Shown here: piece by piece, positions 16,540-63,390 of the stretch
How positions within the stretch are numbered: position 1 is the first letter of the stretch
How the letters are laid out: every line of letters starts with the position of its first letter
DNA from: Psammoneis japonica
Lineage: Eukaryota
DNA: 64,000 bases
Assembly: GCA_008632985.1 (NCBI GenBank)
Contig: QPGO01000083.1
Coordinates: forward strand, 161,075 to 225,074
Direction: 5' to 3'
Translations under genes and position numbers: made by a program
Notes under the pieces: generated by a model
Seen by the model: the letters and a program-made list of their open reading frames with translations, nothing else
Databases searched by the model: none
What the model was told of the DNA's origin: nothing

Positions 16540-16636
16540 TGCTTTGGCAACAGCATGCCTCACATTTCTGGAGAATGGCGTGCGTAAATTGCCTGGAGCA
16601 TGTTTCATGAAGCTCACCACAACCAGTCAAGGTCAA

Positions 16637-34000: not shown

Positions 34001-34190
34001 ACACATCATTGGCTGTGAGCCACCTCCAATGGCTTTTGGGGGAGCAGCTTGTGGTGGGAATCGTCGTGAGCCACTTCAAACAGCTCATGGCTGGAAATGA
34101 CTTGTGTTTTGTGTCTTCAAACAAGTGAACAATCGGTTTCCAAATGAGACAATTTCCAAACAAATTCTGGCACGTCCAACAGATGACACC
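22070..34190. other. 12-kb block of heavily decayed repeats, depleted of TpA and CpG
   Basis: TG/CA-dominated sequence with only scattered TA. Dense overlapping Cys/His/Gln-rich, almost Tyr-free ORFs. No element could be confidently classified. Confidence 0.7.
23355..23457 (+). repeat. 44-bp direct duplication (period 59)
   Basis: TGTAAAATCTAAACAAAAGGAAGAAAGGCAGAGTGTGAAGAAAC versus TGTAAAATCCAAACAAAAGGAAGAAAGACAGAGCACAAAGAAAC. Confidence 0.85.
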
Positions 34191-34646
34191 TCATAGACGG
34201 AAGAAAGCACACATGCCCATGTCTGATTTGCGCGCCCGCCACGTCGTCGGTTACAATCTTTGACTCATTCGACTGTTATGATCTTGCGCCGCTCACAAAA
34301 TAAATCGCACCTCTTTGTCTTTGCCGCCTCTCTTCCCGCGCATTGAACGGCATCGTCACTTGTGCGTTATAAGATTGAAATTGCATCCGGTGAATCCTAT
34401 GCCGTTGCTTGGGAGCGAGAGAAACAACTTGATCACAAGTATTAGAGACCTCCAATATCATAGTAGTTACGGAACAAAGAGGTGAGGGGAGAGATCTCGT
34501 TTTCGTCTGAAATCTGCGACCCCGAAACATGCTTTTCCGCGCTTCTTTATTTTTTTGCCACGACCGTTTTTGTTCGTATATAAACGCTTTTACCTAATCC
34601 TGAGTCCTGCATCTTGTTGTGCCCTTTAGCTCATTACATATTACAA

Positions 34647-37028
34647 ATGAAACAAGAAAAGGAAGAAAGTTATGCCGTTAGGTGGTTGCAACGGAACAAC
34701 CGCAACAGCGACAACAAGGCCTCCCCAAAGGTTCTCGACGGGACTCCACTCGACTGGCCAGATGACATCGATTCGACAGGTGGTACCCGAGACGAACAAT
34801 CTGCAGAAGTAGCATCCGAAGCAGCGTCGTCCGTTTTGCTTGGTGCTGACATTACATTGCCAAGTTCGGACAAAACTGCTGCAACTTCAAAGGAAGAATC
34901 ATCCGAAGCAGCAGCGTCCTCCGTTTTGTACGGGGCTAATATTTCGTTGCCAAGCAATGCGGACAAAACAACAGCAACCAAAGATGCGGGAGGAGAGTCA
35001 TCCGAAGCAGAGTCGTCCGTTTTGTTTGGGGCTAACATTACATTGCCGAGTTCGGACAAAACATCAAAAGAGACAACAGTGTCGTCCAAATTGTATGGGG
35101 CTGATATTACGTTGCCCAGTTCCGACAAACAATCAGAGACATCAAAGGATGCAGAATTATCTTCACCTGGAGAAGTGGAAGTCTTTGTAGATCAGAAGAC
35201 AGGCCTGGATGATTCTCGTGAAGAATCCGGTTTGAATGTGGTTATTCAACAGCTGTCAACGACTGACAAGGCCACTGAAAGCGCCCCCCATTCTGACAGG
35301 GCCGTCCCTTCTCCTATGCGATCTCCTCATCGTGGATACAAATCATCGGGTTCCTCTAGAGTACCTCCTGAAATGATTGCTATACCTGTTCTTGATGAAA
35401 GTGGCGAACCCGTGAACGAGTGCGCGAGCCGTCGAGACGATGTTTCGGCAATCACAAACCCAACAGCTGTTCGAACTGTCAGTAGTCTCGCTCCGTGGAT
35501 GAGACCAATAGGGGAATACGATGAGTTAGACGAGGAAGAAGAGGACTGGCATACATGGAAACGAAACAGAAGAATTATATGCTGTGTAAGTAGTGTGGTG
35601 GTCATTTTCATTGTGGTGGCCTGCATATTTGGCATACTTGCCTCCGTGGGTGTGTTTGAACAGAGTTCATCACAGAGAAGTACTACCAGTTCCGGACCAG
35701 TAACAAACCCACCGTCCACGCCCGTCCCTACAATACTCGTACCACCCTCTCCTCCACCCGAGACGGCGTCGCCGACTTTGTCACCCACCATGAGTACGGG
35801 TGAACCGACATTGCCACCCACCATGAACACCGGTGAGCCGACATTGCCACCCACAACAACCCCTACTGTTCAACCGTCTTTGCCGCCCACCATAACCCCA
35901 ACTGTTCAACCGACTTTGCCGCCTTCTACATTCCCGCCTACAGCTGACTTGAGTCTCTCTGGCGCTCGAGTGTCCTTAGCAAGTAACGCCGGCATTCTTG
36001 GCGTGGGTCTCAACATTGGTTCTGTACGGACATATCGCGTTGACCAAGGCTCTCTGTTTGCGTTGAACCAACCGACGATATCTCTTGCTGGTGAATTGGC
36101 CATTGTGGTGTCTGGAGACGGATCTAGAATGGTGTTGGGCGCAGAAGACGAAGGTCTGAGTGGTCAAGCTCAGGTTTGGACACGAGATGTGAGCGGCCCT
36201 GACGGTGGCCCGTGGTCTCTTTTGGGCGGCGATCTAGTTGGCGAAGTGCCGGGAGGTCAATTTGGTCAAGCGGTAGCCATATCCGCGGATGGTTCGACTG
36301 TTGCTGTTGGAGCTCCAGGAGCAAATGGAGCGACTGGTCAAGTCACGTGTTTTCGACGTTTGAACGACAGCGGACCGTGGACTACTGTTGCAAGTGCCAA
36401 TGGCGTTAATCCGGGAGATGCATTCGGTACGAGCGTGTCCCTTTCGAATGATGGTTCAACTTTAGCCGTTGGTGCACCGCAGCGCAGCGTTGCCTGGGGA
36501 AAAGGCTATGTTCAAATGTACACGCTTGAAGAATCTGCCTTGGAGCCGTCGGGAGGACCGATTGAAGGTGAAGGCATCGGTGACCGTTTTGGTAGTTCAG
36601 TATCTGTGGCAGACAATCTGTCTGCAGTTGCTGTCGGAGCTTGGGGTAACGATGTTAATGGAGAAGACTCTGGTCATGCTCGTGTCTTTGCTAGAAGTGG
36701 CACTACGTGGGGACCAGTTGGAGATCCCGTCAGGGGCGATGCTCCCGGAGATGCTTTCGGTTACTCTGCTTCCCTCAGTGCGGATGGAGCGACCTTGGCA
36801 ATCGGTGCACCTCAGTCATTCACCTCGAGGACGGGCTACATCCGTGTCTTTAGATTTGCCGGTGGGACGTGGGCGACTGCAGAGACTTATCAGGGCGATC
36901 CTGGTCGGCAGCTCGGATTTTCTATATCGCTTGGCCAGGATTCAAGATTCATTAGTGTTGCATGGGGCTCGGCTCTTCTAGCTGATGGAACTGCGAGGTT
37001 TGGATACTATTCCCTTAGCAGTCAGTGA
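34647..37028 (+). CDS. Type II membrane protein with Pro/Thr stalk and FG-GAP (integrin-alpha-like) beta-propeller
   Basis: Four N-terminal SSVL.GA.ITLPSSDK repeats, TM IICCVSSVVVIFIVVACIFGILASVGV, PTLPPT stalk, repeated FGxxVS/AISADGSTVAVGAP motifs. Confidence 0.88.
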   Translation: MKQEKEESYAVRWLQRNNRNSDNKASPKVLDGTPLDWPDDIDSTGGTRDEQSAEVASEAASSVLLGADITLPSSDKTAATSKEESSEAAASSVLYGANISLPSNADKTTATKDAGGESSEAESSVLFGANITLPSSDKTSKETTVSSKLYGADITLPSSDKQSETSKDAELSSPGEVEVFVDQKTGLDDSREESGLNVVIQQLSTTDKATESAPHSDRAVPSPMRSPHRGYKSSGSSRVPPEMIAIPVLDESGEPVNECASRRDDVSAITNPTAVRTVSSLAPWMRPIGEYDELDEEEEDWHTWKRNRRIICCVSSVVVIFIVVACIFGILASVGVFEQSSSQRSTTSSGPVTNPPSTPVPTILVPPSPPPETASPTLSPTMSTGEPTLPPTMNTGEPTLPPTTTPTVQPSLPPTITPTVQPTLPPSTFPPTADLSLSGARVSLASNAGILGVGLNIGSVRTYRVDQGSLFALNQPTISLAGELAIVVSGDGSRMVLGAEDEGLSGQAQVWTRDVSGPDGGPWSLLGGDLVGEVPGGQFGQAVAISADGSTVAVGAPGANGATGQVTCFRRLNDSGPWTTVASANGVNPGDAFGTSVSLSNDGSTLAVGAPQRSVAWGKGYVQMYTLEESALEPSGGPIEGEGIGDRFGSSVSVADNLSAVAVGAWGNDVNGEDSGHARVFARSGTTWGPVGDPVRGDAPGDAFGYSASLSADGATLAIGAPQSFTSRTGYIRVFRFAGGTWATAETYQGDPGRQLGFSISLGQDSRFISVAWGSALLADGTARFGYYSLSSQ

Positions 37029-40568: not shown

Positions 40569-41992
40569 TCATAGCTCACAAATATCCAACGCGTCATCTG
40601 AATCTCCATCCTTTGCTACCGTGTATTGGGCCTTAACTTTTCTCGGATTGGGCCAGAATTCTTCATCGTAATAGGGGCCCATCACTTCCACCACCTCCTC
40701 ACCATCACCTTCGTTGTACTCATCGTACCGTTCACGGTGTAGCTTTCGCATCATTTCAACGTGCTTCTTGTATGCTTTCTCGTATTGTTGGTGGGCCTGC
40801 TCACCCAAGACAGGAGAATGTTTAATAATGTGGCCACAAAAGGACAACATGTCCTGGGTGGTGTGATTGCGCGTGATTGGGCGCCCGCACAAGGTGAGAT
40901 CCTCAAACACACAACGAGGGAATAGCAAAGGAGACGGATCGTATTTACCTGGTGATAGCGTTCTGGAAAGGAAAGATGGGCATTCCAGACTTCGTCGATC
41001 GCCTTCGACGGGGAATACTTCTCTGAGTTCCAATCCTTGGCCTCCGTTTTTATCGCTAGAAACATTTGATAGTTTTTGACAGCACGTTGGGCCCACTCCA
41101 TTCCGAGGTCTGGGAACCGGGCAGCCATCAAGTTGGTCAATGCACCCCAATCTGGTTCCGTGTCTCCACCCATGCGAATATTCATCGCAGTCGGGGAATT
41201 CTCCGAAAGAACAGTGTATAACTTTATCTTGTAGTCTGCTCTCCATGTAAGTTTATGAGAAAGCTCAAATTGACTATCCGTGTCGCAATCATGGAAGGAC
41301 ATGGCAGAGGCGTTAGCTTGGCCGCGAGCATAGACAACCAACACCCCACCAGCATTCTCCTCCCAATCATTGAGACGTCTAACACATGCTCTTCGTTCGA
41401 GAGGATCACGAGGAAATGCCTCGAACGGGAAGTATTCTCGGACTTCCCCCGCATCTAAGTCCTCCGGGTACTTCTCGCGTCGGGGTCGATCAGATCTGAC
41501 AAGCGACGCGCACACATTGTTCCAAACAGTGTTTACTTGGAGGTGGTAGTCCAACTTGAAGTTGTCAATGGGAGAATTGGCATCTGGCCTGTTGAACGAG
41601 GCGGTTAACTCCTCAGCATAGTCTCCCTTTTTGACAACCGCAACGTCGCGGATCGAATCAGAAATGCCATCGTCCCGTTGTCCGTCATTCATAACGTCGT
41701 GATTGGGATCAGCGAAGAGGACTCTGTTAAAAGTTGCCTTTCCCTTCACATTGGTAGTGCCTGCTGCCAACGTAAAGCGCCCCGTAATTGGATCTTGGAG
41801 CATGGGAACTTGCAATGTGCCCACCATACCGCCCTCTGGAATCAGTTGCGTTTTGCAGCTCCGAAACTTGAACTCTACGGTGACGCGGTTAAGATCACCT
41901 TGAGCCCGTCTCACACGTTTTATAGCGGGTCCATCTCTTTTCCCCGTCCGTTTAGCTCCGGCTGAGCTAACAGTCTCGGGAAGTCTTGACAT
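40569..41992 (-). CDS. Protein with C-terminal GRDP/DUF1399-like domain, 2 exons
   Basis: AVKNYQMFL..SPSKAIDEVWNAHL..PERY. In-frame intron 40854-40948, then DMLSFCGHIIKHSP..YDEEFWP. Confidence 0.72.
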
Positions 41993-42147
41993 GGCCGCGT
42001 TTTTCAATGCGGTGTTAGTCGTTAGTCGCTTCTTATCAACAGTAGCCTATGGTTGTTGTAATGGCGGTATGGGTGTCGCCACTTGGCATTCGCAGAACAA
42101 AGGCGGGTGAAAGGCACGACGATTTGATTTTCATTGACCACTTAGTG

Positions 42148-42323
42148 TGAAGAATTTACCATGTGGTTTTATCGGAAATAGTGTTTAGAACTGTATATTT
42201 GGCGATTCGGAACGGGAAGACTCCATCCGAGATCTACTCACAATCTTAGAAATAGTAGCACGATGTTACAACGATTTTCTATAACTTTACTCTCTAGCAA
42301 GCGACTACGGGGTAATTTATTCA
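42148..42323 (+). repeat. 5' LTR (retains 18 TpA)
   Basis: Ungapped match to 48888-49063 with 21 substitutions. Confidence 0.95.
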
Positions 42324-42989
42324 CTTTATCAGAGCCATCGACGTATGTAACGACAGTGGTAATGATTGCTACGCTTGCGAACGATTCGCAATACGACCAT
42401 TCGTTCCAACTTGTCAGAGATGACATGAAAACATCGACGAACGTGAGACGACGTTCGTGCTTGACGAGTATGTAACTCCCAGGGCTAGTTCGGCCGTAAT
42501 ACTTATGGATAACAAAAGTATCGACTGTCCTGATGTGTTTTATGAGCGTAAATACGCGGACACAGAGCGCAAAATTGGATCTGGGACGCCATTTCCATAC
42601 CGAAGTTATCTCGGAGGCAACTGCGTGGCGATTTGAAATCGCCGAGTGAGCATATAAACGCGATATAATTGATAAATTATATATATTTAACCTCACTATT
42701 GGTCAATGTAGACCAGGGAACGAGCACGTTGCCGATGATCGGCACATGCATTATACGATCACGTAGATTGTAACAGTAGCCGTTGTATCTGAATTCCCAT
42801 ACAGATATTTTAATCCACGTCGATTAAATATAAACAGCTATCTGTAGACACGTTGATCGTAGTTATAACGATTACTTTTATGCAACGGTGGAAAAGCGAT
42901 ACGAAGTTCGCGCACCTCACTCACTTTCCGTACACAACCACACAAAAGTTTGCGAGAACATCAAATTACACCGTTCGTAACCACAAACC

Positions 42990-44479
42990 ATGGCGGCAGT
43001 CGCTGCAGCGATGCGTGCTGCCCACACCCGACTGGGGTTTACCACACAAGCAGCCGCGGCTTTAACGATGAGCAGGGAATCGACTCAGTCGATGAACTGC
43101 GTCACCTCGACGACCATGAGGTCGAGACCTCATGCAAGGTCATTCGTCGCCCAGGAGGGGCTGCGGCAGGGAATCCGCCAGCAGGAGGGAACGCCCAACC
43201 CAACCTAGGGATGTCAGTCCCGTTGTGAGCCGAGACGAATCTCAAGCTCGCCGCGCATGCGGCTCGTCACTGCGAGCGCATGTCGCGGACGTTGCGAGCT
43301 GTCGACATCAACCTTGCACCAGTGCGAGGCTGCCGACACTTCCGTGCCACAGAGGAGACCTGCGCACTGCCCAAAACGCTGCCAACGATCATCGAGAAGG
43401 ACTGGCCGAAGACGATCGAGTCGATTCAGGAGCATCTGCGGGCATGCCGAGGCGAGACGAAAACACCGCCAGCGCACGTCATCCGTGACAACCAGGAAGT
43501 GACTCCCAAGGCCGATGATCCAGCCACCAACTGCGACAATCCCATCGAGGAGATGATCGCAAGGGCCCCGCATTTTGCTGCTGGGAACGACCCTCAACCT
43601 GCCGAAACGTTCACGGCCGACAACATCAAAGTGTGGGAAATCATTGCAGGCATTGCGCGAGAACACACGAGTTGGGCCTGTGTCAAGTCGGCCCAGAGGA
43701 GTCAGGATGGCAGGACAGCCCACCTGAACCTGTGCAACCATTTCTTGGGCCCCAACAATGCAGATGACATGGCAAACGCCGCTGAAAAGCGCCTTGCCAG
43801 TTTGTCCTGCCACGGGGAAAAGCGCAATTGGAACTTCGAGCGCTGCGTGTGAGTTCATGTCGAACAACACGCGATTCTGGATGGCTTGACCCAGCATGGT
43901 TATGCCGGGATCGACGCACAATCCAAGGTCCACCATCTCCTTGCAAGTGTCAAGGACTCGTCGCTTGACTCAGTCAAGACGCAGATCATGTCTAGCGCAA
44001 CGTTGCGCAACGACTTTGATGCTTGCGTCATTCTGTTCAAGGACTTCATCAAGCAGTCCAAGCCGGACAATGACGCGAAACGTCTTCGTGTTGCGGCTCT
44101 CAAGGCTGGGAAGCGTAGACGAGAGGCTGTCATTCATGCCGATGACGTGGAGGACAAGTGCCACCCTCCCAAAGAGCACAGCAAGCTGTCTCCCCAGGCT
44201 GGGAAGAAGCTCAAGTCGCTGCGCAACACACATGGTGACACGAAAACCGGCAAGGCCACGGCGGCCGGTGACGCCAAACAGATCAAGGCTCTGACCAAGA
44301 CGGTCACTGCCATTTCAGCTCAGACAGACGATTCATCCAATGAAGGCAGCAGTGAATCTGAAACTGAAGAGCCAATGAAGCCTCCGGCCACCAAGCAGGA
44401 TCGAAACCGCGGCAACAAGGCGTTGATTCGCAAGGCTGCTCGCAAGCACATCCCCAAGGCTGGACATTGCAAGGAGTGA
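42990..44479 (+). pseudogene. gag: Copia gag, disrupted
   Basis: MAAVAAAMRAA..RLGFT, a frameshift near 43063, then EQGIDSVDEL..VIRRPGG and GEKRNWNFE. In-frame TGA at 43226 and 43850, compatible with CGA>TGA. Confidence 0.8.
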
Positions 44480-44485
44480 CTGCCA

Positions 44486-47400
44486 ATGGTGGCTGTCATG
44501 CGGCTCAGTCCGCTGCAGACTTTGCGCTCAACCCAGACAAAGGTCAAGGGACCATCGAACGAAGAGTCTCGCACGGACATCGACAGTCATGCAGACACAA
44601 GCGCACCAGGCAAGCACGCTTTAATTTTACTTGACCATGATGGGCCAGCAGACACAGAAGGGTGCGACCCGACATCAGGTGCCAGCAAGTGTCTGTGCAC
44701 CGTCAGTGGAGCTGTTGCTTGTGCCGATCCTCAGACGGGCCACCCACACGTCTTGGTTGTCCACCAAGCAGTCCATGTGCCACACCTTGAGCATGGCTTG
44801 CTGTGTCCAATGCACTTGTGGCTGAATGACGTGGAACTTTCATTAAAACCGAAGTTTCCACTGACAAAGCCCAATGACAAGGAACATGCGATTGTCGCCA
44901 AGGATGCAAATGGCACTTCATTGACCACACCTTTGGACCTGGAGGGAGTCTCGAGCTGCTTCCCCTCCAGTGTCCCGACTTTATCTCAATGCGAGGATGC
45001 GGCCCAAGAAGGGAGCGTGTGTGAACTCATGCATGAGTCCCCGGAATGGGACCCCACCTCCTCTGATTTCCACGCTGGGGAAGATGCCATGACCGATGCT
45101 CTTGGCAGAGTGCATGAGACCGGGGACGACACGCGTCCTCATGTGCACATTATGAGCACGAAGCTCTCACGCACTGCAGCTCAAGAGACCTCAGACTCTC
45201 TGGGGAATCAGCCGTTGCGTGACATTTCCAATGCATGCGATGACCGTTTGCTGCTGGCATCCATGAAACTGTCTTCGCTCAAGACAACGAAGCGCGGCTT
45301 CAAGGTTGACGCTGAACGTTTGGCCGAGAATTGGTCCATCAGCCTCAAGGATGCTCAGAACACTCTCAAGGTTACGACACAGTGTGGAGCTAGGACGGTT
45401 CTACATCCTGCGCTGTCGCGACGTTTCCGCACCAATGATCGACAACTGCAATGCAGGCGTGTCTCAAAGGAGATGCACTCCAATGCCATGTTCTCCTCTG
45501 TCAAGTCTAGGCGAGGGAATGTGTGCGCGCAAGTGTTCGCAATGTCCAATGGATGGGCACGCGCTCATCCATTGAAGTCAAAACGTCCAGCGCACGAGGC
45601 GTTGTCATTGCTCTTCGTGCAAGAAGGCGTGCCCCATGCTGTGCCAGTGGACGGGGCGAGAGAAGAGACAATGGGGCAGTTTAGCAAGAAAGCCAGGGAG
45701 GCTGATTGCCATGTGAGACAAACTGAACCATGTGCCCCTTGGTCCAACACCGCAGAGGGCACAATTCGTGAACTCAAGCGAGGTGTTGGGCGCAAGATGG
45801 TTAAGTCACAGGCCCCAAAATGCCCATGGGATGATTGCCTGGAACTGGAAGGCCTTGTTGGGTCTAACACCGCTCGAAGCATCTATGAGCTTGACGGTGA
45901 AGTCCCGGAAACTGTTGTGTCCGGTCAGACGGCTGACATCTCGCACACATGCGAACTAGGCTGGTACGACTGGGTCATGTTTCGAGACACGGCAGTCTCA
46001 TTTCCCGAGGACAAGGAAGTCCTGGGGCGACATCTAGGTCCGAGCAGGGATGTGGGCCCAGCTGTGATGGCCAAGACACTCAAGGAGAACGGACAGGCAG
46101 TCCATCGCTCATCTTGTGGGGCACTGACTCCCGAGGAGCAGGGACACAAGACGCACATGGCGTCACGTGAAAAGTTTGATAGGTTGACAGAGGTCAAGCT
46201 AGGCCCTGGTGTGACCGTCGGGGACTTTGACGACCCTGACGCAATTACTCCCACCTTCGAACCGTACGAGGATGACGAGGAACAGGATGTTCCGTCTAGT
46301 GCCTCCGATGAGGATGACATGCCAGACGAAGCCTGCGATCAACATGTCAACGCAGAAGCACTGCCACCTCACGGGGACATGGAACAGACTGGGACAGTGA
46401 AGCGACGTAAGCTCAATCCGGACGGCACACCTGCCGGACGGGCTAACCCAAACCCAATGCTTGACACTCGTGTGCATGAGGTCGAGTTTCCTGATGGACA
46501 GGAAGCAGAATTCGCGGCGAATGTCATCGCTGAGAACATGTTCGCACAGTGTGACAATGAAGGCAACCAGCACTTGTTGCTAGATGCAATTGTTGATCAC
46601 AAGACTGACGGGCATGCTGTCAAGAAGGAGGACGCCTTCATCCAAGACAGTCGAGGACGTCGATCCATGCGCAAGACTGCCAAAGGCTGGCATCTTTGCG
46701 TGCAATGGAAAGACGGACCCACATCTTGGGAACGACTGTCCGACTTGAAGGAATCTAACCCAGTAGAAACAGCAGAGTATGCCAGGGCTAGATCTATAGA
46801 GGATGAACCCGCATTCGCATGGTGGGTTCCCTTTACCTTCAAGAAACGTCAGCAAATCACAGCCGCTGTGAACAAGCGATGTCACAAGCGCACTCACAAG
46901 TGCGGGATGCGCATTCCCAAGACCCATGAAGAGGCAGTCGAGATCGACAAGGCTAACGGCGACCGCTTGTGGCAGGACACCGTAGACAAGGAGATCGAAG
47001 TCGTTACGAAAGCCTTTGAGATTATCGACGATGACGATGAGCTTGTGGGTTACCAGCATGTCCGCTGCCACTTGGCCTTTGATGTCAAACTACAAGACTT
47101 CAAGCGGAAGGCTCGCCATGTCGCAGGGGGACATGCCACTGAACCTCCAGCGACCCTGACGTACGCAAGCGTCGTCTCCCGTGAAAGTGTGAGGATTGCC
47201 TTCGCTCTGGCGGCTCTAAATGACTTGGAGGTTAAGGCTGCGGACATTGAGAATGCCCATGTCACCGCACCTAACAGCGAGAAGATCACTGCAACTCTAG
47301 GACCTGAGTTTGGACCCAATGCTGGGAAGCGTGCCACAGTTGAGCGCGCATTGTACGGATTGAAGAGTGCAGGTGCATCCTTCAGGAACCACTTGGCATC

Positions 47401-48619
47401 GTGCATGCGTCATCTTGGTTGGGAACCATGTCTGGCTGATCCCGATGTGTGGATGAAGGCACAAGTTCGACCAGATGATGGGTTCCGTTGCTGTGCCTGT
47501 GCACTGTTGCATGTCGACGACGTGCTTGTGGCACACCACGACGCTACGTCAGCGCTCAAGGAATTGGACCGATGCTTCAAGATGAAACCCGGATCCATCG
47601 GTGACCCTGAGATGCACCTCGGGGCGAAGATCCGTGAAGTGCAAATGCCGAACGGTGTCTGCGCGTGGAGCATGAGCTCTGGCAAGTGCATCCAACAGGC
47701 CATTGGAAATGTCGAGGGGCACCCAGATGAGTCCACTCCCGGATGGACGTCACCACGCAAGGCAACGGCTCCGTTTCCACGCGACTGTCGACCGGAGCTC
47801 GACATTGCGCCAAAGCTCGATGCAGAGCGGGCTCGATTTTACCAGTCGCAGGTGGGAGTCCTGCACTGGACAGTGGAACTCGGACGAGTCGACCTCACAG
47901 CAGAGGTGTCCAAGCTTGCCTCATTCCTTGCCATGCCTGGAGAAGGTCATCTCGGCGCAGTCCCACATGTGCATGGGTGCCTTGAGAATGGACACAATGC
48001 CACGTCAGCGTTCGATCCGACGTGCCCGGATGTCGACATGTCTGACTTTAAGGAATGTGATTGGCAGGCGTTCTGCAGGGACGTTAAGGAGGCAATTCCG
48101 CCGAATGCACCAGAAGCTCTGGGCAAGGACATTGATCTGCGTCTGTTTGTAGATTCAGATCATGCGAATGACAAAGTGACGAGACGCTCTCGCACTGGTC
48201 ATTTCATCCATTTGAACATGGCATTGATTGCCTGGTTCTCCAAGCACCAGAGCACCATCGAGACTTCAGTCTTTGGTGCTGAGTTTGTGGCTGTGAAGCA
48301 GGGCATGGAAGCTTTGCGAGGCCCAAGGTGCAAACTCAGGATGATGGGAGTCCCGCTCAGCGGACCATCACACATTTGTGGGGACAACATGTCAGTTGTC
48401 CACAACACCCAAAGCCCAGAGTTGACTTTGAAGAAGAAGTCTAACTCCACATGCCACCATGCCGTTGGGGAGTCGGCAGCCATGGGTGAGTCCCTTGCAG
48501 GACACATTAGATCGGAATGCAATCCGGCTGATCTTGCGACTAAGATCATGTGCGGTGGCATCAAGCGAGATGGCCTCGTTGGTGTGATGCTACACGACAC
48601 ATGTGATGATCAAGGATGA
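44486..48619 (+). pseudogene. pol: Copia pol (protease-integrase-RT-RNase H): open frame but missense-riddled
   Basis: IDSHADT, VDGAREE, KARHVAGGH, ADIENAH, ALYGLKSAG, LLHVDD, FVDSDHA..RRSRTG, GDN, NPADLATK. Many expected Tyr read as Cys or His. Confidence 0.93.
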
Positions 48620-48887
48620 ATGAAGAATGAACAGTCGCTTCCTCGACTGACTCTTTTTCTGTTTCTCCTTGCATCCAGCAAGCATGTCAGCTTGCACTGG
48701 CGGGCATGTTGGCTCGCATTCCTTCCATGTGCTTCTTGGAAGGGCACAGTTTTAGACTGGCACCCTTTCCCAATTTGGGTTTCAGCAGGTTGTCAGGGTT
48801 TCCTTGTCACTTGGTTGTGGCTAAATGCTGTCGGAGTGCAAATTGGATCAAGCTGATTCAGTGTCTGCTTCAACGACTTGAGGGGAC

Positions 48888-49063
48888 TGAAGAATTTGCC
48901 ATGTGGTTTTGTCGGAAATGGTGTTTGGAACTGTGTGTTTGGCGATTCGGAACGGGAAGACTCCATCCAAGATCTGCTCACAATCTTGGAAATGGTGGCA
49001 CGATGTTGCAACGATTTTCTGTGACTTTGCTCTCTGGCAAGCGACTGCGGGGCAACCCATTCA
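48888..49063 (+). repeat. 3' LTR (0 TpA)
   Basis: Follows the PPT, ends TTCA and is followed by the AGTG TSD. Confidence 0.95.
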
Positions 49064-49203
49064 AGTGGTTGGTGATTGCAGACTTTTTCGTGTCGGTCCG
49101 GCAGTCGGGCAGTCGGGCAGTCGGGCAGTTTGTCCGAATTTGAAAGTGTGTCCCTTGCATGGATTTTGAAAGGGCATGGGTTGTTCAGCACAGATGAATT
49201 CTT

Positions 49204-52200
49204 GGCAATTTTTTCATGTTCGTGGCCGGTTAAAGGAAAAGAGAAAAAAAGAGGGGAATCAACCGTTGAACACACACACACAATTGACCATGCAACCATG
49301 GCCAGAGTTGCACTGGCTTCTTTTGATCCAGGGTGGTTGCTGCAGGTGCAAAGAGTGGGGCACATTGCAGTTGCAGGAGGGTGACAATGTGGCACTGAGT
49401 GTGTGCCACCAGGCTGAGCAGCCCAGCTTGGGTGTCAGCCAAGCCCTGCCAGGCCAGCTGCCCTGGCTCCAGCTGCTCTTCCCAGTGTGCGTGAGTTGTT
49501 GAAGGAGCACCACATTGACTCAAAGGCTGTGTTTTAAGTGGGGCAGAGAGAAAAAACTGTTGTCTTGGCTGGTGCTTGCTTCAGACCCTGCATCATGAGC
49601 GCAAGCTCCTCTTGAGAAATGAGCGAGAATGGCCATTTTTGGCGCCTCTCTTTGGTTGCCCACTTGGCATTGCCAACAAATCTTGAACCAAACTTCACTC
49701 ACAGTTTCTTCACTCTTCAACCACAAAACCAGGTTCAACTTTTTGTTGGCTTCTTTGTGGCTGGGGTCACTGTTGCAGGCACAAATGGTGGGCACATGCC
49801 ATGTGGCTGCTTGGCAACAAGAGTGTGATGCCAAGCATGTGCTGCACACCAAGGAGCCAAGCAGCCCAGCCCAGCTTTGAATGGAGCCCCAGGACAGCAG
49901 CCAACTCTGGGTGATCTCAGCATGGTGTGCTTGTTTGGGCTGTGCTGCACTCACCCCACAGTGCTCTGTGTTGTGGTGGCTTGTTGTGCAAGCCGTGTGG
50001 CTGAAGAGCCAGCAGCCAGCCAGGGCCCATCTTGCAAAGGCCACAAATGTTGACCCTGTGCAAAGCTGTGTGAGGGGGCAGGCACAGGGATTTGCAATGA
50101 TGGCTTCACAGCCATTGGCCCCAAGTTGGCATTTGATTGGGATCCAGTGCTGAGGGGCTGTGAAGTGTGGGGTTGGGAGCCCAGCCAGCTCGCACTCTCT
50201 TTGTTGTCACAAAGTGCTGCCACAGCTGTCTTTGCATTGCAGCCAGCCAGGTGCGGTTGACCCCAAGTTGGCACTTGATTTGGAGTGACTGCCAAGGAGC
50301 TGTGAAGTGTGGGGTTGGGCAGTCCAGCCAGCTCACACTCTTTGCTGACAGCAGAAAGCACTGTCGCAGCTGTCCTTGCGCACACATGGCCAGAGCAGCC
50401 TTGGCACATCCTGCTGACAAAACTGACAAAGACAGCGACTCTTGTGGTTGAGCCACTCAGCACGCAGGAGATCTGGGCACACTCCTGGGAAGTCAAACAG
50501 GAAGGAGGGCTGAGCATTGCCGCCAGTGCCAGGCACAAATGTCAGCTTGTCTTGAGAGAGATTCGAGCCCACACAGCCCCGCGTTGGGCATCTTTGCTGG
50601 CAAAATGGAAAGCATTCTTGAGCACATTCTGGCATGTGGGCAGCACTGTCACCAAGAGGGCTGCTCTGCAGAGGAAGAGGGAAATGGGCAACAACATTTT
50701 GCAAGAACTGTTTTGTGTCAATGGTCGGGTGGGATGTGGCAGCATCATCTGGACTTTGATGGAGCATTTGGCGGACAAAGCTTGAGCACAGAGAGTTGTC
50801 CACTCAAGCTCCACAAGTGGCACTTTCCAAAGGTGACACCACACATGGGCCATGTGTTCATGCATCAACATGCCTCAAGCTGCAAGTCACACAAAAAAAC
50901 CACCACCAACCTTTCAGCCAACCACCATCATGGACAGAACAGGTCAAGAGGTTCAAAACAAGAGCGATTCATTGACTCTCTTCTGGTTCCATGCATTCAA
51001 GAGCTTCTTGTCCTTCTCAAATGTTTGTTGTGCATTGTTGTCTCTTTTAATTCAAGTGCAAAGAGGAGTCACTTTTCTTGTTTCCATCTCTTGAGATGTT
51101 GTTGGTTGTTGAGTGATGCAACTTTTGTTGTCACATTTTTGGAAATGTTGGCAAACCCGATCACTGCTTGATTGTCAACCCATTTGCTGTTTTAAGTCTC
51201 CATGGCATAAAATGCCATAATTCCAGAGCCCTCAATTGTTTCATCAAACGCAGTGCTTTGAAACACGTCCAACATCAACTCGACTCAGTTGAAATCCCAG
51301 TTTGTGGGCGATGAAAAATCACGAATGTCAAACAAATGGCTACTTTCGACATCAAGATCCCCGAGTTCAATCCAAATGTGACGGTACGCCTCACAGCTTA
51401 TGGCCATGACACATACAAGCATGCCTCATTGTCATCGCGTCGAGCACTCGTATCGAAAATGCCGATAGATCAAAGTTCAGGAAAAGGATGGAATACAAAT
51501 TCATTTGTGAATTCATTAGTGGCATTGGCGTAATGATATTTACGGCAGAAGCAATCTAAAATCCTTATTCATCATTGACATTTCTGTATTGCTCAGATTT
51601 TGAAATCTGACCACTACCGTTAAGCATTTAGCTGTCTTTGTATGGAAGTGGAAATGACACTTAACGATTTACACTAACCATTTAGCTTTCTTTGTGTCGA
51701 AGTGGAAATGACACTTAACGATTTACACTAACCATTTAGCTTACTTTGGCTCGAAGTCAGACAAAGAGATTGGGCTATGGGCTTGTCGTTAACCAGCCAC
51801 GAGCATGAAATCTTTACCGGTGGCGGCAATTTTTTCATGTTCGTGGCCGGTTAAAGGAAAAGAGAAAAAAAGAGGGGAATCAACCGTTGAACACACACAC
51901 ACAATTGACCATGCAACCATGGCCAGAGTTGCACTGGCTTCTTTTGATCCAGGGTGGTTGCTGCAGGTGCAAAGAGTGGGGCACATTGCAGTTGCAGGAG
52001 GGTGACAATGTGGCACTGAGTGTGTGCCACCAGGCTGAGCAGCCCAGCTTGGGTGTCAGCCAAGCCCTGCCAGGCCAGCTGCCCTGGCTCCAGCTGCTCT
52101 TCCCAGTGTGCGTGAGTTGTTGAAGGAGCACCACATTGACTCAAAGGCTGTGTTTTAAGTGGGGCAGAGAGAAAAAACTGTTGTCTTGGCTGGTGCTTGC

Positions 52201-55200
52201 TTCAGACCCTGCATCATGAGCGCAAGCTCCTCTTGAGAAATGAGCGAGAATGGCCATTTTTGGCGCCTCTCTTTGGTTGCCCACTTGGCATTGCCAACAA
52301 ATCTTGAACCAAACTTCACTCACAGTTTCTTCACTCTTCAACCACAAAACCAGGTTCAACTTTTTGTTGGCTTCTTTGTGGCTGGGGTCACTGTTGCAGG
52401 CACAAATGGTGGGCACATGCCATGTGGCTGCTTGGCAACAAGAGTGTGATGCCAAGCATGTGCTGCACACCAAGGAGCCAAGCAGCCCAGCCCAGCTTTG
52501 AATGGAGCCCCAGGACAGCAGCCAACTCTGGGTGATCTCAGCATGGTGTGCTTGTTTGGGCTGTGCTGCACTCACCCCACAGTGCTCTGTGTTGTGGTGG
52601 CTTGTTGTGCAAGCCGTGTGGCTGAAGAGCCAGCAGCCAGCCAGGGCCCATCTTGCAAAGGCCACAAATGTTGACCCTGTGCAAAGCTGTGTGAGGGGCA
52701 GGCACAGGGATTTGCAATGATGGCTTCACAGCCATTGGCCCCAAGTTGGCATTTGATTGGGATCCAGTGCTGAGGGGCTGTGAAGTGTGGGGTTGGGAGC
52801 CCAGCCAGCTCGCACTCTCTTTGTTGTCACAAAGTGCTGCCACAGCTGTCTTTGCATTGCAGCCAGCCAGGTGCGGTTGACCCCAAGTTGGCACTTGATT
52901 TGGAGTGACTGCCAAGGAGCTGTGAAGTGTGGGGTTGGGCAGTCCAGCCAGCTCACACTCTTTGCTGACAGCAGAAAGCACTGTCGCAGCTGTCCTTGCG
53001 CACACATGGCCAGAGCAGCCTTGGCACATCCTGCTGACAAAACTGACAAAGACAGCGACTCTTGTGGTTGAGCCACTCAGCACGCAGGAGATCTGGGCAC
53101 ACTCCTGGGAAGTCAAACAGGAAGGAGGGCTGAGCATTGCCGCCAGTGCCAGGCACAAATGTCAGCTTGTCTTGAGAGAGATTCGAGCCCACACAGCCCC
53201 GCGTTGGGCATCTTTGCTGGCAAAATGGAAAGCATTCTTGAGCACATTCTGGCATGTGGGCAGCACTGTCACCAAGAGGGCTGCTCTGCAGAGGAAGAGG
53301 GAAATGGGCAACAACATTTTGCAAGAACTGTTTTGTGTCAATGGTCGGGTGGGATGTGGCAGCATCATCTGGACTTTGATGGAGCATTTGGCGGACAAAG
53401 CTTGAGCACAGAGAGTTGTCCACTCAAGCTCCACAAGTGGCACTTTCCAAAGGTGACACCACACATGGGCCATGTGTTCATGCATCAACATGCCTCAAGC
53501 TGCAAGTCACACAAAAAAACCACCACCAACCTTTCAGCCAACCACCATCATGGACAGAACAGGTCAAGAGGTTCAAAACAAGAGCGATTCATTGACTCTC
53601 TTCTGGTTCCATGCATTCAAGAGCTTCTTGTCCTTCTCAAATGTTTGTTGTGCATTGTTGTCTCTTTTAATTCAAGTGCAAAGAGGAGTCACTTTTCTTG
53701 TTTCCATCTCTTGAGATGTTGTGGTTGTTGAGTGATGCAACTTTTGTTGTCACATTTTTGGAAATGTTGGCAAACCCGATCACTGCTTGATTGTCAACCC
53801 ATTTGCTGTTTTAAGTCTCCATGGCATAAAATGCCATAATTCCAGAGCCCTCAATTGTTTCATCAAACGCAGTGCTTTGAAACACGTCCAACATCAACTC
53901 GACTCAGTTGAAATCCCAGTTTGTGGGCGATGAAAAATCACGAATGTCAAACAAATGGCTACTTTCGACATCAAGATCCCCGAGTTCAATCCAAATGTGA
54001 CGGTACGCCTCACAGCTTATGGCCATGACACATACAAGCATGCCTCATTGTCATCGCGTCGAGCACTCGTATCGAAAATGCCGATAGATCAAAGTTCAGG
54101 AAAAGGATGGAATACAAATTCATTTGTGAATTCATTAGTGGCATTGGCGTAATGATATTTACGGCAGAAGCAATCTAAAATCCTTATTCATCATTGACAT
54201 TTCTGTATTGCTCAGATTTTGAAATCTGACCACTACCGTTAAGCATTTAGCTGTCTTTGTATGGAAGTGGAAATGACACTTAACGATTTACACTAACCAT
54301 TTAGCTTTCTTTGTGTCGAAGTGGAAATGACACTTAACGATTTACACTAACCATTTAGCTTACTTTGGCTCGAAGTCAGACAAAGAGATTGGGCTATGGG
54401 CTTGTGGTTAACCAGCCACGAGCATGAAATCTTTACCGGTGGCGGCAATTTTTTCATGTTCGTGGCCGGTTAAAGGAAAAGAGAAAAAAAGAGGGGAATC
54501 AACCGTTGAACACACACACACAATTGACCATGCAACCATGGCCAGAGTTGCACTGGCTTCTTTTGATCCAGGGTGGTTGCTGCAGGTGCAAAGAGTGGGG
54601 CACATTGCAGTTGCAGGAGGGTGACAATGTGGCACTGAGTGTGTGCCACCAGGCTGAGCAGCCCAGCTTGGGTGTCAGCCAAGCCCTGCCAGGCCAGCTG
54701 CCCTGGCTCCAGCTGCTCTTCCCAGTGTGCGTGAGTTATTGAAGGAGCACCACATTGACTCAAAGGCTGTGTTTTAAGTGGGGCAGAGAGAAAAAACTGT
54801 TGTCTTGGCTGGTGCTTGCTTCAGACCCTGCATCATGAGCGCAAGCTCCTCTTGAGAAATGAGCGAGAATGGCCATTTTTGGCGCCTCTCTTTGGTTGCC
54901 CACTTGGCATTGCCAACAAATCTTGAACCAAACTTCACTCACAGTTTCTTCACTCTTCAACCACAAAACCAGGTTCAACTTTTTGTTGGCTTCTTTGTGG
55001 CTGGGGTCACTGTTGCAGGCACAAATGGTGGGCACATGCCATGTGGCTGCTTGGCAACAAGAGTGTGATGCCAAGCATGTGCTGCACACCAAGGAGCCAA
55101 GCAGCCCAGCCCAGCTTTGAATGGAGCCCCAGGACAGCAGCCAACTCTGGGTGATCTCAGCATGGTCAATTGTGTGTGTGTGTTCAACGGTTGATTCCCC

Positions 55201-57854
55201 TCTTTTTTTCTCTTTTCCTTTAACCGGCCACGAACATGAAAAAATTGCCGCCACCGGTAAAGATTTCATGCTCGTGGCTGGTTAACGACAAGCCCATAGC
55301 CCAATCTCTTTGTCTGACTTCGAGCCAAAGTAAGCTAAATGGCCAGTGTAAATCGTTAAGTGTCATTTCCACTTCGACACAAAGAAAGCTAAATGGTCAG
55401 TGTAAATCGTTAAGTGTCGTTTCCACTTCGACACAAAGAAAGCTAAATGCTTGACGGTGGTGGTCAGATTTCAAATTCTGAGCAATACAGAAATGTCAAT
55501 GATGAACAAGGATTTTTGATCGCTTCTGCCGTAAATGTCATTACGCCAATGCCACTCTAGTGAATGCACAAATGAATTTGCATTCCATCCTTTTCCTGAA
55601 CTTTGATCTATCGGCATTTTCGATACGAGCATACGCGATGACAACAATGAGGCATGCTTGTATGTGTCATGGCCATAAGCTGTGAGGCGCACCGTCACAT
55701 TTGGATTGAACTCGGGGATCTTGATGTCGAAAGCAGCCATTTGTTTGACATTCGTGATTTTTCATCGCCCACAAACTGGGATTTCAACTGAGTCGAGTTG
55801 ATGTTGGACGTGTTTCAAAGCACTGCGTTTGATGAAACAATTGAGGGCTCTGGAATTATGGCATTTTATGCCATGGAGACTTAAAACAGTAAATGGGTTG
55901 ACAGTCAAGCAGTGATCGGGTTTGCCAACATTTCCAAAAATGTGACAAGCAACAAAAATTGCATCACTCAACAACCAACAACATCTCAAGAGACAGAAAC
56001 AAGAAAAGTGACTCCTCTTTGCACTTAAATTAAAAGAGACAACAATGCACAACAAACATTTGAAAAGGACAAGAACAAGCTCTTGAATGCATGAAACAAG
56101 AAGAGAGTCAATGAAGCAATCACTCTTGTTTCGAACCTCTTGACCTGTTCTGTCCATGATGGTGGTTGGTTGAGAAAGGTTGGTGGTGGTTTTTTTGTGA
56201 CTTGCAGCTTGAGGCATGTTGATGCATGAACACATTGGTGTCACCTTTGAAATGTGCCACTTGTGGAGCTTGAGTGGACAGCTCTCTGTGCTCAAGCTTT
56301 GTCCACCAAATGCTCCGTCAAAGTCCAGATGCTGCCCGCCCCCCATCCCACCCGACCATTGACACAAAACAGTTCTTGCAAAATGTTGTTGCCTGTTTCC
56401 CTCTTCCTCTGCAGAGCAGCTCTCTTGGTGACAGTGCTGCCCACATCCCAGAATGTGCTCAAGAATGCTTTCTAACTTGCCAGCCAAGACACCCAACTCG
56501 GGGCTGTGTGGGCTCAAATCTCTCTCAAGACAAGCTGACATTTGTGCCTGGCACTGGCGGCAATGCTGCACCCTCCTTCCCATTTGACTTCCCAGGAGTG
56601 TGCCCAGACCTCCTGCATGCCAGGTGGCTCAACCACAAGAGTCGCCATCTTTGCCAGCTTTGTCAGCAGGATGTGCCAAGGCTGCTCTGGCCATGTGTGC
56701 ACCTGGCTGGCACCACAATGCAAGGACAGCTGCGACAGCACTTTCTGCTGTCAGCAAAGAGTGTGAGCTGGCTGGACTGCCCAACCCCACACTTCACAGC
56801 TCCTTGGCAGTCACTCTAAATCACGTGCCAACTTGGGGTCAACCACACCTGGCTGGCTGCAATGCAAAGACAGCTGTGGCAGTGCTTTGTGGCAGAGTGT
56901 GAGCTCCTGGCTGGGCTCCCAACCCCACACTTCACAGCCCCTCAGCAATGGCTCCCAACCAAATGACAACTTGGACCAATGGCTGTGAAGTGCCATTGTT
57001 TCAATTCCTGTGCCTGGCCCCTCACACAGCTTTGCACAGGGTCAACATGTGTGTGTGGCCTTTGCAAGATGGGCCCCTGGCTGGCTGCTGACTCAGCCAC
57101 GGCTTGCAACAAGAAGCCACCACAACACAGAGCATTGTGGGGTGAGTGCAGCACAGCTTGAACAAGCAAACCATGCTGAGATCACCCAGAGTTGGCTGCT
57201 GTCCTGGGGCTCCATTCAAAGCTGAGCTGGGCTGCTTGGCTCCTTGGTGTGCAGCACATGCTTGGCATCACATTCTTGTTGCCAAGCAGCCACATGGCAT
57301 GTGCCCACCATTTGTGTCTGCAACAGCGACCCCAGCCACAAAGAAAAAGTTGAACCTGGTTTTGTGGTTGAAGAGTGAAGAAACTGTGAGTGAAGTTGGG
57401 TTCAAGATTTGTTGGCAATGCCAAGTGGGCAGCCAAAGAGAGGCACCAAAAATGGCTGTTCTTGCTCATTTCTCAAGAGGAGCTTGCACTCATGATGCAG
57501 GGTCTGAAGCAAGCACCAGTCAAGATGACAGTTTTTTCTCTCTGCCCCACTTGAAACACAGCCTTTGAGTCAATGTGGTGCTCCTTCAACAATTCGCACA
57601 CACACTGGGATGAGCAGAGCTGGAGCCAGGGCAGCTGGCCTGGCAGGGCTTGGCTGACACCCAAGCTGGGCTGCTCAGCTTGGTGGCACACACTCAGTGT
57701 CACATCTCTTTGCACCTGCAGCAACCACCCTGGACCAAAAGAAGCCAGTGCAACTCTGGCCCTGGTTGCATGGTCAATTGTGTGTGTGTTCAATGGTCGA
57801 ATCCCCTCTTTTTTTCTCTTTTCCTTCAACCGGCCACGAACATGAAAAATTGCC
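49204..57854. mobile_element. Composite array of a ~2.6-kb TIR element (Merlin-like termini): two tandem units, a partial unit, an inversion and a diverged inverted unit
   Basis: 8-bp TSD GAATTCTT (49196-49203 / 57855-57862). Units at 49204-51818, 51825-54437, 54444-55166 (partial), inverted 55160-55249 and inverted 55256-57854. TIRs GGCAATTTTTTCATGTTCGTGGCCGGTTAA / GGTAAAGATTTCATGCTCGTGGCTGGTTAA. No transposase could be confidently read. Confidence 0.85.
51625..51757 (+). repeat. Subterminal 54-bp tandem repeat (~2.5 copies), also present in the other full units
   Basis: CATTTAGCT..GAAGTGGAAATGACACTTAACGATTTACACTAAC starting at 51625, 51679 and 51733. Confidence 0.9.
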
Positions 57855-58819
57855 GAATTCTTCGGATTCTTGGAATTGTCATTGAGGACATGAGAGGTTG
57901 TGGGGACATCCTAAAAAATCGATAAATTCCCTGCGACGGGTGCGTGGCACGGTTTTTCAGGAGAGCTCGAAAGTTCTGAAAAATTGGGATTGCCGGCGTG
58001 GCATGTTCAAAAATGCATTCAGTTGCACACAAAGACAATTTGTCGTGAATTCTACACGAAAAAGTCACACTGGGGAAAACACATCAAACAACAAGTGAGT
58101 TTGTGTGATGCGCTGTCATGGCGATAAATTGGAAAAAAGAGTGTCCGAGCACCTCGCCACAGCCCCAAAAATGGCATGAGACATCAAACACAACGGTCAT
58201 CCGCGTCACTGGTGCGGCGGCCATGCTGCTCAGCCGCCACAATGCCAGCCCGGCGGCAGGGCCCTGTGCACGTACAGGCAATGCAGCATGCAACAGCACA
58301 CACCCACACCCACAAAGAAAGACAAGTGGTCAATGCTCCCCGCAGGCCTGGTTCAGGATTTTCTGCTGTGCGAGAAACGCACACTGGCAGTGCGACACGC
58401 GCCTCATTCAATCATTGCCAAAAAGCGGCGACATGGTGGTGGTGCATTGTTGCAGCGATGGCAATGACAGTGCACTCCCCAGCATTCGGGAGTGAAGCAA
58501 GAGGTCTGCACATGTCATGTGGACAATTTTGTGTTGTGCAGATGTCTGCACAATCAGTGCGTTGCATGCATTTCTGCGCAACATCTCTTGCACTACAAAT
58601 TCGGAAACAATTGCGCGATTTCTCGCCCAAAGCAATGATTGGAGCTTTGCGCAGATGTCCATTGAAGCAAAAGAGGGGAAGGAAAGACACCAGCAAACAC
58701 CACAGCCTTGAACGGATCGAGCGCCAATGGCGGCGTTCTTCGCTGCAGCTCGTCGCCGCCTGCCGAGGCTGCAGCAGCTGCTGCAATTTTGAACAAAGAG
58801 CAACACATGCCTGCACTGC

Positions 58820-62600: not shown

Positions 62601-63390
62601 CTCAAAATTCTTGTTGGAAGACACTCTGGATCTGCTTTAGAGACTTGACACAATGACTCATTTGTCCTGTCATTCACCCTCTTAATTTGTTGCATTGGCC
62701 AACAACTGGGGTGAGTGAGTCACATTTTCCAGGTCACAAACTGCAGCACAGCCAAAAGAAGCAATCTGTGCCTTTGGAACCATCATGATGCACTGGTCTG
62801 CCAAACAAAACTCCGCATCACCACCCAAAGATGGGGGGAGAACTCTTGTCAAAAGTGTGCAATGATGTGTTTGATCTGTTGAGAGCTTGCCCAGCTTAAG
62901 ACATCACAGCTCCAAGTTGCCACATTTGTTGTGAACTCTTCCTGATGCTGTGTCTGTGGCTTGGCTTCGTTGTTGAATTGCCGTGGCCATCGCACTTCAG
63001 AAATGACACTTGACAAGAAAAAGTGTCTCTGGGACACCTCACGACAACGGAGACCCTGCAGAACAAAAGAACAATGCAGAAAGAGAAAACACATGCAAGT
63101 TGGATGGTNNNNNNNNNNNNNNNNNNNNNNNNNNNNNNNNNNNNNNNNNNNNNNNNNNNNNNNNNNNNNNNNNNNNNNNNNNNNNNNNNNNNNNNNNNNN
63201 NNNNNNNNNNNNNNNNNNNNNNNNNNNNNNNNNNNNNNNNNNNNNNNNNNNNNNNNNNNNNNNNNNNNNNNNNNNNNNNNNNNNNNNNNNNNNNNNNNNN
63301 NNNNNNNNNNNNNNNNNNNNNNNNNNNNNNNNNNNNNNNNNNNNNNNNNNNNNNNNNNNNNNNNNNNNNNNNNNNNNNNNNNNNNNNNNN

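Follow-up and report, generated by a model that had tools for sequence, protein, structure and literature searches.

In the rhizarian Bigelowiella natans, integrated viral DNA is reported to acquire de novo changes, A>G and T>C, at the dinucleotide TpA exclusively; they are limited to foreign DNA, the remaining genome mutating normally, and the long-term footprint that they leave (clusters depleted of TpA and enriched in CpA and TpG) is itself enriched in reverse-transcriptase and DDE-endonuclease domains. An ADAT-like DNA adenine deaminase is suggested as the agent by the authors of this preprint (10.64898/2026.01.13.699255). Among diatom retrotransposons, CoDi elements are described as having long terminal repeats (LTRs) and, behind an ORF1 (gag), a polyprotein encoded by ORF2, the two being separated by one stop or by none (PMC2806351, Maumus et al. 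2009); the same account gives 4 bp as the length of the target duplication of the diatom element Blackbeard. The present analysis concerns a stretch of 64,000 nucleotides from the diatom Psammoneis japonica (GenBank assembly GCA_008632985.1, contig QPGO01000083.1, positions 161,075 to 225,074 of the forward strand), hereafter called the window and numbered from its first letter, and in particular a CoDi-like Ty1/copia element within it. A process acting on DNA after integration probably converted TpA into TpG or CpA in both strands of this element and in further tracts of the window, sparing host genes and leaving the element dead.

Conversion of TpA in the LTRs and pol of a copia element

LTRs are identical when a retroelement integrates. 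The two LTRs of this element begin with TG, end with CA, are flanked by AGTG on their outer sides and are now 88% identical (self-BLAST). The 5′ LTR holds 18 TA and the 3′ LTR none, and the 21 differences in 175 aligned columns consist of 16 consecutive TA>TG, then two TA>CA together with two adjacent T>C, one CG>CA and no transversion. At all converted sites it is the 5′ LTR that holds the TA or CG state. Among the 21 differences, 18 fall at TA; all 18 TAs were thus converted, as against 1/9 CpGs, and outside TA and CG only 2/122 positions differ, both being T>C beside a converted TA. Judged from these counts, conversion outpaces CpG decay and exceeds the rate of ordinary substitution by a factor of at least about 100. 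Because LTRs start identical, and because DNA that is not of retroelement origin is also affected, the conversion came after integration and took place in DNA. The 5′ LTR lies in a block of normal composition, with a TA observed/expected ratio (o/e) of 0.98 at 42001-43000, and the left edge of the converted tract is sharp: each 200 bp holds 12-19 TA at 42000-42999 and 0-6 from 43000 onwards.

By its sequence features, the element is a dead CoDi-like Ty1/copia LTR retrotransposon of a diatom nuclear genome, spanning 42148-49063. Its parts are as follows.

42144..42147, + strand: 5′ target-site duplication AGTG, 4 bp, abutting the LTR
42148..42323, + strand: 5′ LTR, 176 bp, TG...CA, unmutated, with 18 TA and 9 CG (self-BLAST, alignment and counts)
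42324..42337, + strand: primer-binding-site-like CTTTATCAGAGCCA directly after the 5′ LTR (read from the sequence)
42990..44479, + strand: gag (ORF1), broken, with its ATG at 42990 and its terminal TGA at 44477-44479
43101..49063, strand not applicable: hypermutated part of the element, the tract running on into the 3′ flank to ~51200
45801-46300 and 46701-47300: milder patches inside the hypermutated part (hidden Markov model (HMM) segmentation)
44480..48619, + strand: pol ORF, 1379 codons, open, with many missense changes attributable to loss of TA
47504..47521, + strand: LLHVDD, the YVDD box of the reverse transcriptase, in which His has taken the place of Tyr (Y1011H, TAY>CAY)
48880..48887, + strand: polypurine tract GAGGGGAC directly before the 3′ LTR (read from the sequence)
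48888..49063, + strand: 3′ LTR, 176 bp, fully converted, with 0 TA and 8 CG
49064..49067, + strand: 3′ target-site duplication AGTG

The pol frame is coding and not a chance frame, because 1498 database proteins match it at E<=0.001, the best of them with 61% identity over the full length. Its identity to diatom proteins is 53-61%, the named ones including proteins of Fragilaria crotonensis and Nitzschia inconspicua. The original prediction, made from the sequence alone, had set the direction of change by protein conservation, with TA ancestral and both strands hit, and had proposed an alignment with a table of exchanges as the check. To this end, pol was aligned with 70 relatives, which gave 604 columns conserved in >=80% of them. 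The pol of the window differs at 95/604 of these columns, the leading exchanges being Y>C (13) and Y>H (6); conserved Tyr is retained at 6/25 columns, compared with >=55% for every other residue type, and the 70 relatives carry Tyr at the columns where the window has Cys or His. A codon-context test over 845 columns then scored which single transition, by dinucleotide, restores the family residue, counted per non-synonymous opportunity. Reversal of TG to TA restores the consensus in 34/173 opportunities and reversal of CA to TA in 25/128, that is 59/301 (19.5%) for the two TA routes combined. Reversals along the CpG route are less productive (15/142 for CA>CG and 7/121 for TG>CG), and the remaining 12 contexts restore the consensus at 0-6.8%. 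Of 186 mismatches, 59 are explained via the TA route and 22 via the CpG route. The same pipeline applied as a control to the host acyltransferase of the window found Tyr kept at 5/5 columns, TG>TA restoring in 1/46 opportunities and CA>TA in 0/23. The predicted predominance of Tyr losses, and of reversals to TA as the route that most often restores the consensus, is thereby borne out, as is the involvement of both strands, the 34 TG and 25 CA restorations being interleaved along pol. The LTR pair gives the same direction independently. Within the pol ORF, the TA o/e is 0.25.

The frame is real and runs from stop to stop over 1379 sense codons (1377 from the ATG at 44486). All eight peptides that had been picked out in it are present; for LLHVDD, the position formerly given, 47510, is that of its His codon. 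The seven others (all on the + strand) are listed with the consensus of 38 relatives.

47489-47512: CCACALLH, consensus YAYxLLYVDD (spanning LLHVDD too)
47609-47629: EMHLGAK, consensus YLGAK
48014-48031: DPTCPD, consensus DPTYP
48314-48349: LRGPRCKLRMMG, consensus LRGLRYKLRMMG
48362-48388: GPSHICGDN, consensus GPSYIYGDN
48443-48466: NSTCHHAV, consensus NSICYHAVRE
48590-48610: LHDTCDD, consensus LYDIxD

At the Tyr column of the YVDD box (Y1011), Tyr is found in 97% of the 70 relatives and His in the window. This Tyr is among the residues changed at 9/141 invariant columns and 29/284 columns conserved at >=97%, so the view that Pol was inactivated by missense while its frame stayed open fits what was found, and the YVDD to HVDD change together with the loss of invariant residues suggests that Pol activity was lost. 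Pfam RVT_2 scores 41.4 bits on the window pol (cut-off 31.6) versus 56-67 bits in three relatives. A weak rve (integrase) match (E 0.023, residues 327-390, upstream of the reverse transcriptase) occurs in 1/3 relatives and not in the window copy; the full-length alignment with diatom copia proteins supports this order of domains, and the order protease, integrase, reverse transcriptase, RNase H is inferred for this pol from its relatives.

That the pol frame is still open follows from the conversion itself, since it cannot turn a sense codon into a stop. According to the position in the frame, TAN becomes TGN or CAN, NTA becomes NTG or NCA, and NNT|ANN becomes NNC|ANN or NNT|GNN; the sole stop obtainable is TGA from TAA, itself already a stop. 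The earlier wording, that loss of TA rarely creates stops, was too weak, since TA>TG/CA never makes a stop of a sense codon. When 75% of the TAs in the pol ORFs of 19 relatives were converted by simulation, the frame remained open in 200/200 trials for each; with as many random transitions it stayed open in 0-9.5% of trials (19 ORFs), and changes in the direction of fungal repeat-induced point mutation (RIP) closed it in 200/200 trials for each of the 19. TAA and TAG occur 4-6 times less often in the converted tracts, where TGA is slightly more frequent, and the mean stop-to-stop distance rises from 26.8 to 35.7 codons. The further claim that dead elements look intact to ORF finders is correct for pol and fails for gag, which has two secondary in-frame TGA stops (43226-43228 and 43850-43852); all four stops in the gag frame are TGA. 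The frame-2 translation of gag matches the gag regions of related loci (tblastn, 37 high-scoring segment pairs, best E 9e-98), and where the window has the two internal stops, sense residues stand in the relatives (L12/R6/I5... and T18/A5...). The first of these stops possibly arose by CGA>TGA. In a public run (X1, platform not on record), which may be the sample from which the window was assembled, an additional C follows 43065 in other copies of the family, at roughly half the depth; gag perhaps has a 1-bp deletion near 43065, at a homopolymer position which may be an assembly error.

As to the insertion site, an uninterrupted paralogous target site at 12080-12110 reads ...CACTCAGTGGTTGG..., to be compared with 42120-42147 joined to 49064-49100, so that the element sits at the edge of a dispersed repeat whose uninterrupted target paralogue survives. 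This paralogue has CTCAGTG, versus CTTAGTG in the 5′ flank of the insertion, a further TA/CA difference. In run X1, one contig passes from 42147 to 49066 with two additional letters at the junction and the element absent, at a depth of 24.9 versus 62 for unique flank; it may represent an empty allele (the insertion then being heterozygous) or a paralogue of the flanking repeat. The CTTTATCAGAGCCA that follows the 5′ LTR is a putative primer-binding site, resembling the one for initiator tRNA-Met in copia elements. The stretch 40754-42046 (− strand), which directly precedes the insertion, is a 431-codon open frame of normal composition with no Pfam family; it is presumably a host gene, the element lying between this frame and the repeat block.

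Converted tracts, extended motif and related copies

Conversion is not a property of this one element. A two-state HMM segmentation divides the window into 41.0 kb of mutated and 23.0 kb of normal DNA, so that ~64% of the window is covered, with TA at 0.08 of expectation in the 41 kb. Relative to normal blocks, mutated blocks have TA at x0.13, CG at x0.39 and TG and CA at x1.4-1.5; AA and TT are unchanged (x1.04 and x1.05), TA and CG being the only dinucleotides depleted. Normal host DNA is also TA-poor (o/e ~0.5-0.6). All five host genes recognised by a Pfam scan (102/117 ORFs >=130 aa, within the 64-kb window) lie in normal blocks.

4432-5814: YaaA-like gene
5956-8409: acyltransferase gene
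8598-9350: DUF2470 gene
9783-10952: GT49 gene
34584-37025: gene for an FG-GAP protein

The best matches of the carnitine acyltransferase at 6937-8409 (− strand) are diatom proteins, with up to 69% identity. No tRNA genes and no Rfam families were found in the window.

Mutated blocks differ in apparent age. In old ones CpG is also lost (0.15-0.4), while the young copia element still has CG at 0.83; loss of TA thus precedes loss of CpG. A second young-looking target, at 12601-17500, has TA o/e 0.12 and CG 0.76 and is probably another mobile element; four consecutive ORFs on the + strand are pieces of a family of proteins of ~1100 aa, with 254 relatives at E<=0.001 and a sub-threshold likeness to DUF6589.

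12815-13564, + strand: first ORF
13774-14667, + strand: second ORF
14671-16134, + strand: third ORF
16138-16536, + strand: fourth ORF

This element gives a weak protein signal of the same sign (conserved Tyr kept at 0/3 columns, TG>TA restoring in 3/32 opportunities and CA>TA in 3/19). The 12-kb block at 22101-34200 (TA o/e 0.06, CG 0.18), whose ORFs >=130 aa have no Pfam match, probably consists of old, fully degraded repeat DNA. Beyond the copia element, a 2.6-kb repeat is TA- and CG-depleted except for one normal island of 700 bp per copy (51201-51900, 53801-54500 and 55201-55900; TA o/e ~0.5, CG ~0.95, GC 0.41). The tandem copies 49204-52547 and 51825-55166 differ only by two homopolymer indels, one C/G and one TG/TA; a third copy, inverted (55160-57863), is ~91-95% identical and is set apart by substitutions of the ordinary kind, 40 of the 136 being transversions. 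TA was therefore lost for the most part before the duplication, and the indels point to a long-read assembly. The 700-bp island holds a 54-bp tandem repeat (51621-51757). An assembly gap of 282 N occupies 63109-63390, and the last kilobase of the window has GC 0.35 and very high TG/CA.

The nucleotides next to TA influence conversion. Survival of TA was measured in pol against 19 intact relatives, and in the window as mutated versus normal blocks. Sites in RTAY context (R, purine; Y, pyrimidine) survive at 0.09 in pol and 0.027 in the window, mixed contexts at 0.25 and 0.095, and YTAR sites at 0.76 and 0.372, a dependence with chi-square p=7e-8 (pol) and 3e-25 (window). A model with one rate per strand, in which the A of either strand is hit independently (T-A-Y fast, T-A-R slow), predicts 0.262 in pol and 0.100 in the window for the mixed class, and among mixed pol sites it is the strand offering T-A-Y that was converted in 20/28 (p=0.036). 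The extended motif is 5′-T-A-Y-3′ with A mutated, which on the other strand is R-T-A with T mutated.

Other copies of the family were sought in run X1, the contigs of which hold 59% of sampled 31-letter words of 42000-46000 as exact matches; a contig of unique flank matches the window with 0 differences over 678 bases. The summed depth of the family is ~800 versus 62 for the unique flank, and 630/763 variant places in it are transitions. At 44389/90, 44449/50, 44676/7, 46164/5 and 48329/30, the window has CA where X1 copies have TG, or the reverse, an alternation that would fit independent hits on one ancestral TA; since X1 may come from the window's own sample, this evidence is not independent. 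In metagenomes, 80 related loci were found, intact RYKLRMM being required and the set hence biased against mutated copies; their TA o/e is 0.47-0.90, and 0/1283 windows of 500 bp fall below 0.15. One of them, a copia locus of 4250 bases (L028), has CG o/e 0.01 and TA o/e 0.47, so that CpG decay without TA loss occurs in other diatoms.

A proposed converting agent and its alternatives

According to the favoured sequence of events, the element integrated and a DNA-level process then turned TpA into TpG or CpA (A:T>G:C transitions) in both strands, from ~43100 through the 3′ LTR into the flank, with the 5′ LTR and the leader escaping. Most of the repeat-derived DNA in the window was altered by the same process, in tracts with sharp borders, and the host genes escaped. 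Pol lost Tyr, Ile, Val and Leu residues by missense, the YVDD Tyr included, and its frame remained open. These steps follow from the data. The agent would be a DNA adenine deaminase (A>inosine>G) of the TadA/ADAT kind, a proposal for which the chances appear even. Its targets would be silenced chromatin with methylated cytosine, and it would serve as a genome defence comparable to fungal RIP but opposite in chemistry. The natural substrate context of TadA is U-A-C, which T-A-Y fits better than it does the 3′-G preference of ADAR.

Several points weigh against this reading. The link to methylation is drawn from CpG depletion alone. As TA is self-complementary, attack on A and attack on T leave the same sequence. 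Neither repetition nor element identity alone defines a tract, because the 5′ LTR is untouched and its twin saturated, and because the 700-bp island is normal in three copies. ADAR and fungal mRNA editing prefer a 3′ G, unlike the 3′-pyrimidine bias found here. A processive single-strand deaminase should show strand coherence, and this appears only in the 3′ LTR, where the same-strand run of 16 is unexpected (chance of <=2 runs among 18 sites, 1.4e-4). The order of TG and CA in pol shows no strand clustering (33 runs, p=0.83), nor do any of the 9 mutated blocks (z -1.3 to +2.0); the 5 normal blocks have no TG/CA clustering either (z over all 14 blocks, -2.0 to +2.0). Some pol changes may predate the insertion, the LTR changes being the only ones strictly dated after it. 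Lastly, the assembly has homopolymer indels, and the run that confirms it has no platform on record and is possibly from the same sample.

The alternative that survives best, though it is rather improbable, places the lesion on thymine: an oxidase of the TET/JBP kind would make 5-hydroxymethyl- or 5-formyl-uracil in R-T-A of silenced DNA, and mispairing with G would be fixed as T>C. The data being symmetric (T-A-Y is R-T-A on the other strand), the motif is fitted equally well, and dinoflagellates replace thymine by 5-hydroxymethyluracil preferentially at TpA. This base pairs mostly with A, however, and is weakly mutagenic, while the near-complete conversion (18/18 in the LTR) needs a lesion that miscodes as efficiently as inosine does; no report of such a base in diatoms was found. 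Error-prone repair synthesis in methylated heterochromatin, with polymerase-eta-like WA>WG errors (W, A or T) after processing of 5-methylcytosine mismatches, is very unlikely. Such a spectrum is known from somatic hypermutation, and the mutated blocks are CpG-depleted too, but a WA signature should erode AA, which like TT is intact in these blocks, and in the young element TA is nearly gone with CG at 0.83 and a single LTR CpG changed, so that the TA loss does not follow CpG damage.

Two further explanations have slight credit. Editing of the element RNA from A to I (ADAR- or ADAT-like), fixed by reverse transcription before integration, would account for the many family copies that differ mainly by transitions, and RNA editing typically yields clusters of A>G that favour a 5′ U. 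Edits made in RNA would appear in both LTRs, which are copied from the same template regions, whereas all 18 TA sites differ between them; moreover, the pol coding strand shows both T>C (25) and A>G (34), and flanks and non-retroelement DNA are likewise depleted. Because of the asymmetry of the LTRs, which largely refutes it, editing before integration was rejected. A sequencing or base-calling artefact, in which a modified base at TpA in heterochromatin would be read as G or C in a long-read assembly, is just as hard to credit: the tandem repeat copies differ by homopolymer indels of the kind typical of such assemblies, but the contigs of run X1 (possibly the same sample) contain most of the sampled words of 42000-46000 and match the unique flank without a difference over 678 bases, and an artefact would not give fixed TG here and CA there, nor would it make conversion on either strand depend in a graded way on the 3′ base. 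An origin in ordinary composition or in selection (avoidance of UpA in RNA, bias in codon use, GC-biased gene conversion), to which the mild TA deficit of normal host DNA might point, has next to no probability and was rejected, as invariant residues are destroyed, the LTR twin keeps its TAs, none of the 80 related loci falls below a TA o/e of 0.47 and biased gene conversion is not TA-specific.

Implications and comparison with known systems

If conversion after integration is real genome-wide, diatoms have a mutational genome defence for which no description in diatoms was found in the literature searched. Stop-free conversion would kill mobile elements by missense and leave kilobases of open, protein-like frames, with practical consequences: criteria based on open frames will score dead elements as intact, and gene finders will meet long spurious frames because of the rarity of TAA and TAG in tracts. 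Dating by LTR divergence fails, since the pair is 12% diverged with all but two differences at TA or CpG. The T-A-Y motif offers a biochemical fingerprint for testing candidate deaminases, and workers on base editing would take an interest in a DNA adenine editor of natural origin and known context.

In its build, the window element is like CoDi as far as that description goes, with LTRs, gag then pol with one stop between them and a 4-bp duplication as in Blackbeard; it differs in that this copy is dead. The clustered transitions of deaminase type by which APOBEC3 and ADAR inactivate retroelements in animals are a first parallel, and the run of 16 in the 3′ LTR is reminiscent of these clusters. 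Unlike what is seen in the window, APOBEC changes C>T and G>A; ADAR acts on RNA, with a preference for a 3′ G and against a 5′ G. Since both work on replication intermediates, they fail to explain the unequal LTRs and the mutated flanks that are not retroelement DNA.

Fungal RIP is similar in that it is a transition hypermutation of DNA after integration, in tracts over repeats and transposons, with genes spared and elements killed undeleted. It was rejected as an explanation because its direction is opposite: RIP changes C>T at CpA (G>A at TpG), creating TpA and stop codons and lowering GC, while the window loses TA and gains TG/CA. In addition, RIP is triggered by duplication; here, one LTR is mutated and its twin spared, and the thrice-repeated island is untouched. 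The diatom DNMT4 is described as related to the RIP factor RID (PMC9998398), and concerns cytosine and not adenine.

In the portions of the literature searched, the only matching process found was that of the Bigelowiella preprint and no diatom report was found; the terms dinucleotide, hypermutat-, deaminat- and RIP are all missing from a 2025 preprint about the transposons of diatoms. Bigelowiella is a rhizarian and the window host a diatom, that is a stramenopile. In the preprint, an integrated giant virus and a virophage are the observed targets, as against an LTR retrotransposon and repeat blocks in the window; the depletion that it describes is modest (Rho TpA 0.45 in the giant-virus region), compared with 0.02-0.1 in the window, which is near saturation and accompanied by CpG loss. 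A 3′-pyrimidine preference exists in the window, and none is stated in the main text on Bigelowiella, where the process was observed in mutation-accumulation lines; in the diatom, it is deduced from one 64-kb sequence. If such conversion is real genome-wide, an ancient adenine-directed DNA-editing defence in the stramenopile–alveolate–rhizarian (SAR) supergroup becomes a question, Bigelowiella being the only counterpart found. That diatoms would possess a chromatin-directed T-A-Y DNA adenine deaminase homologous to the Bigelowiella activity, as an old defence shared by stramenopiles and rhizarians, can be proposed only tentatively. What the two systems have in common, as far as the preprint describes its own, is that A>G and T>C changes occur nearly only at TpA and are confined to foreign or repeat DNA.

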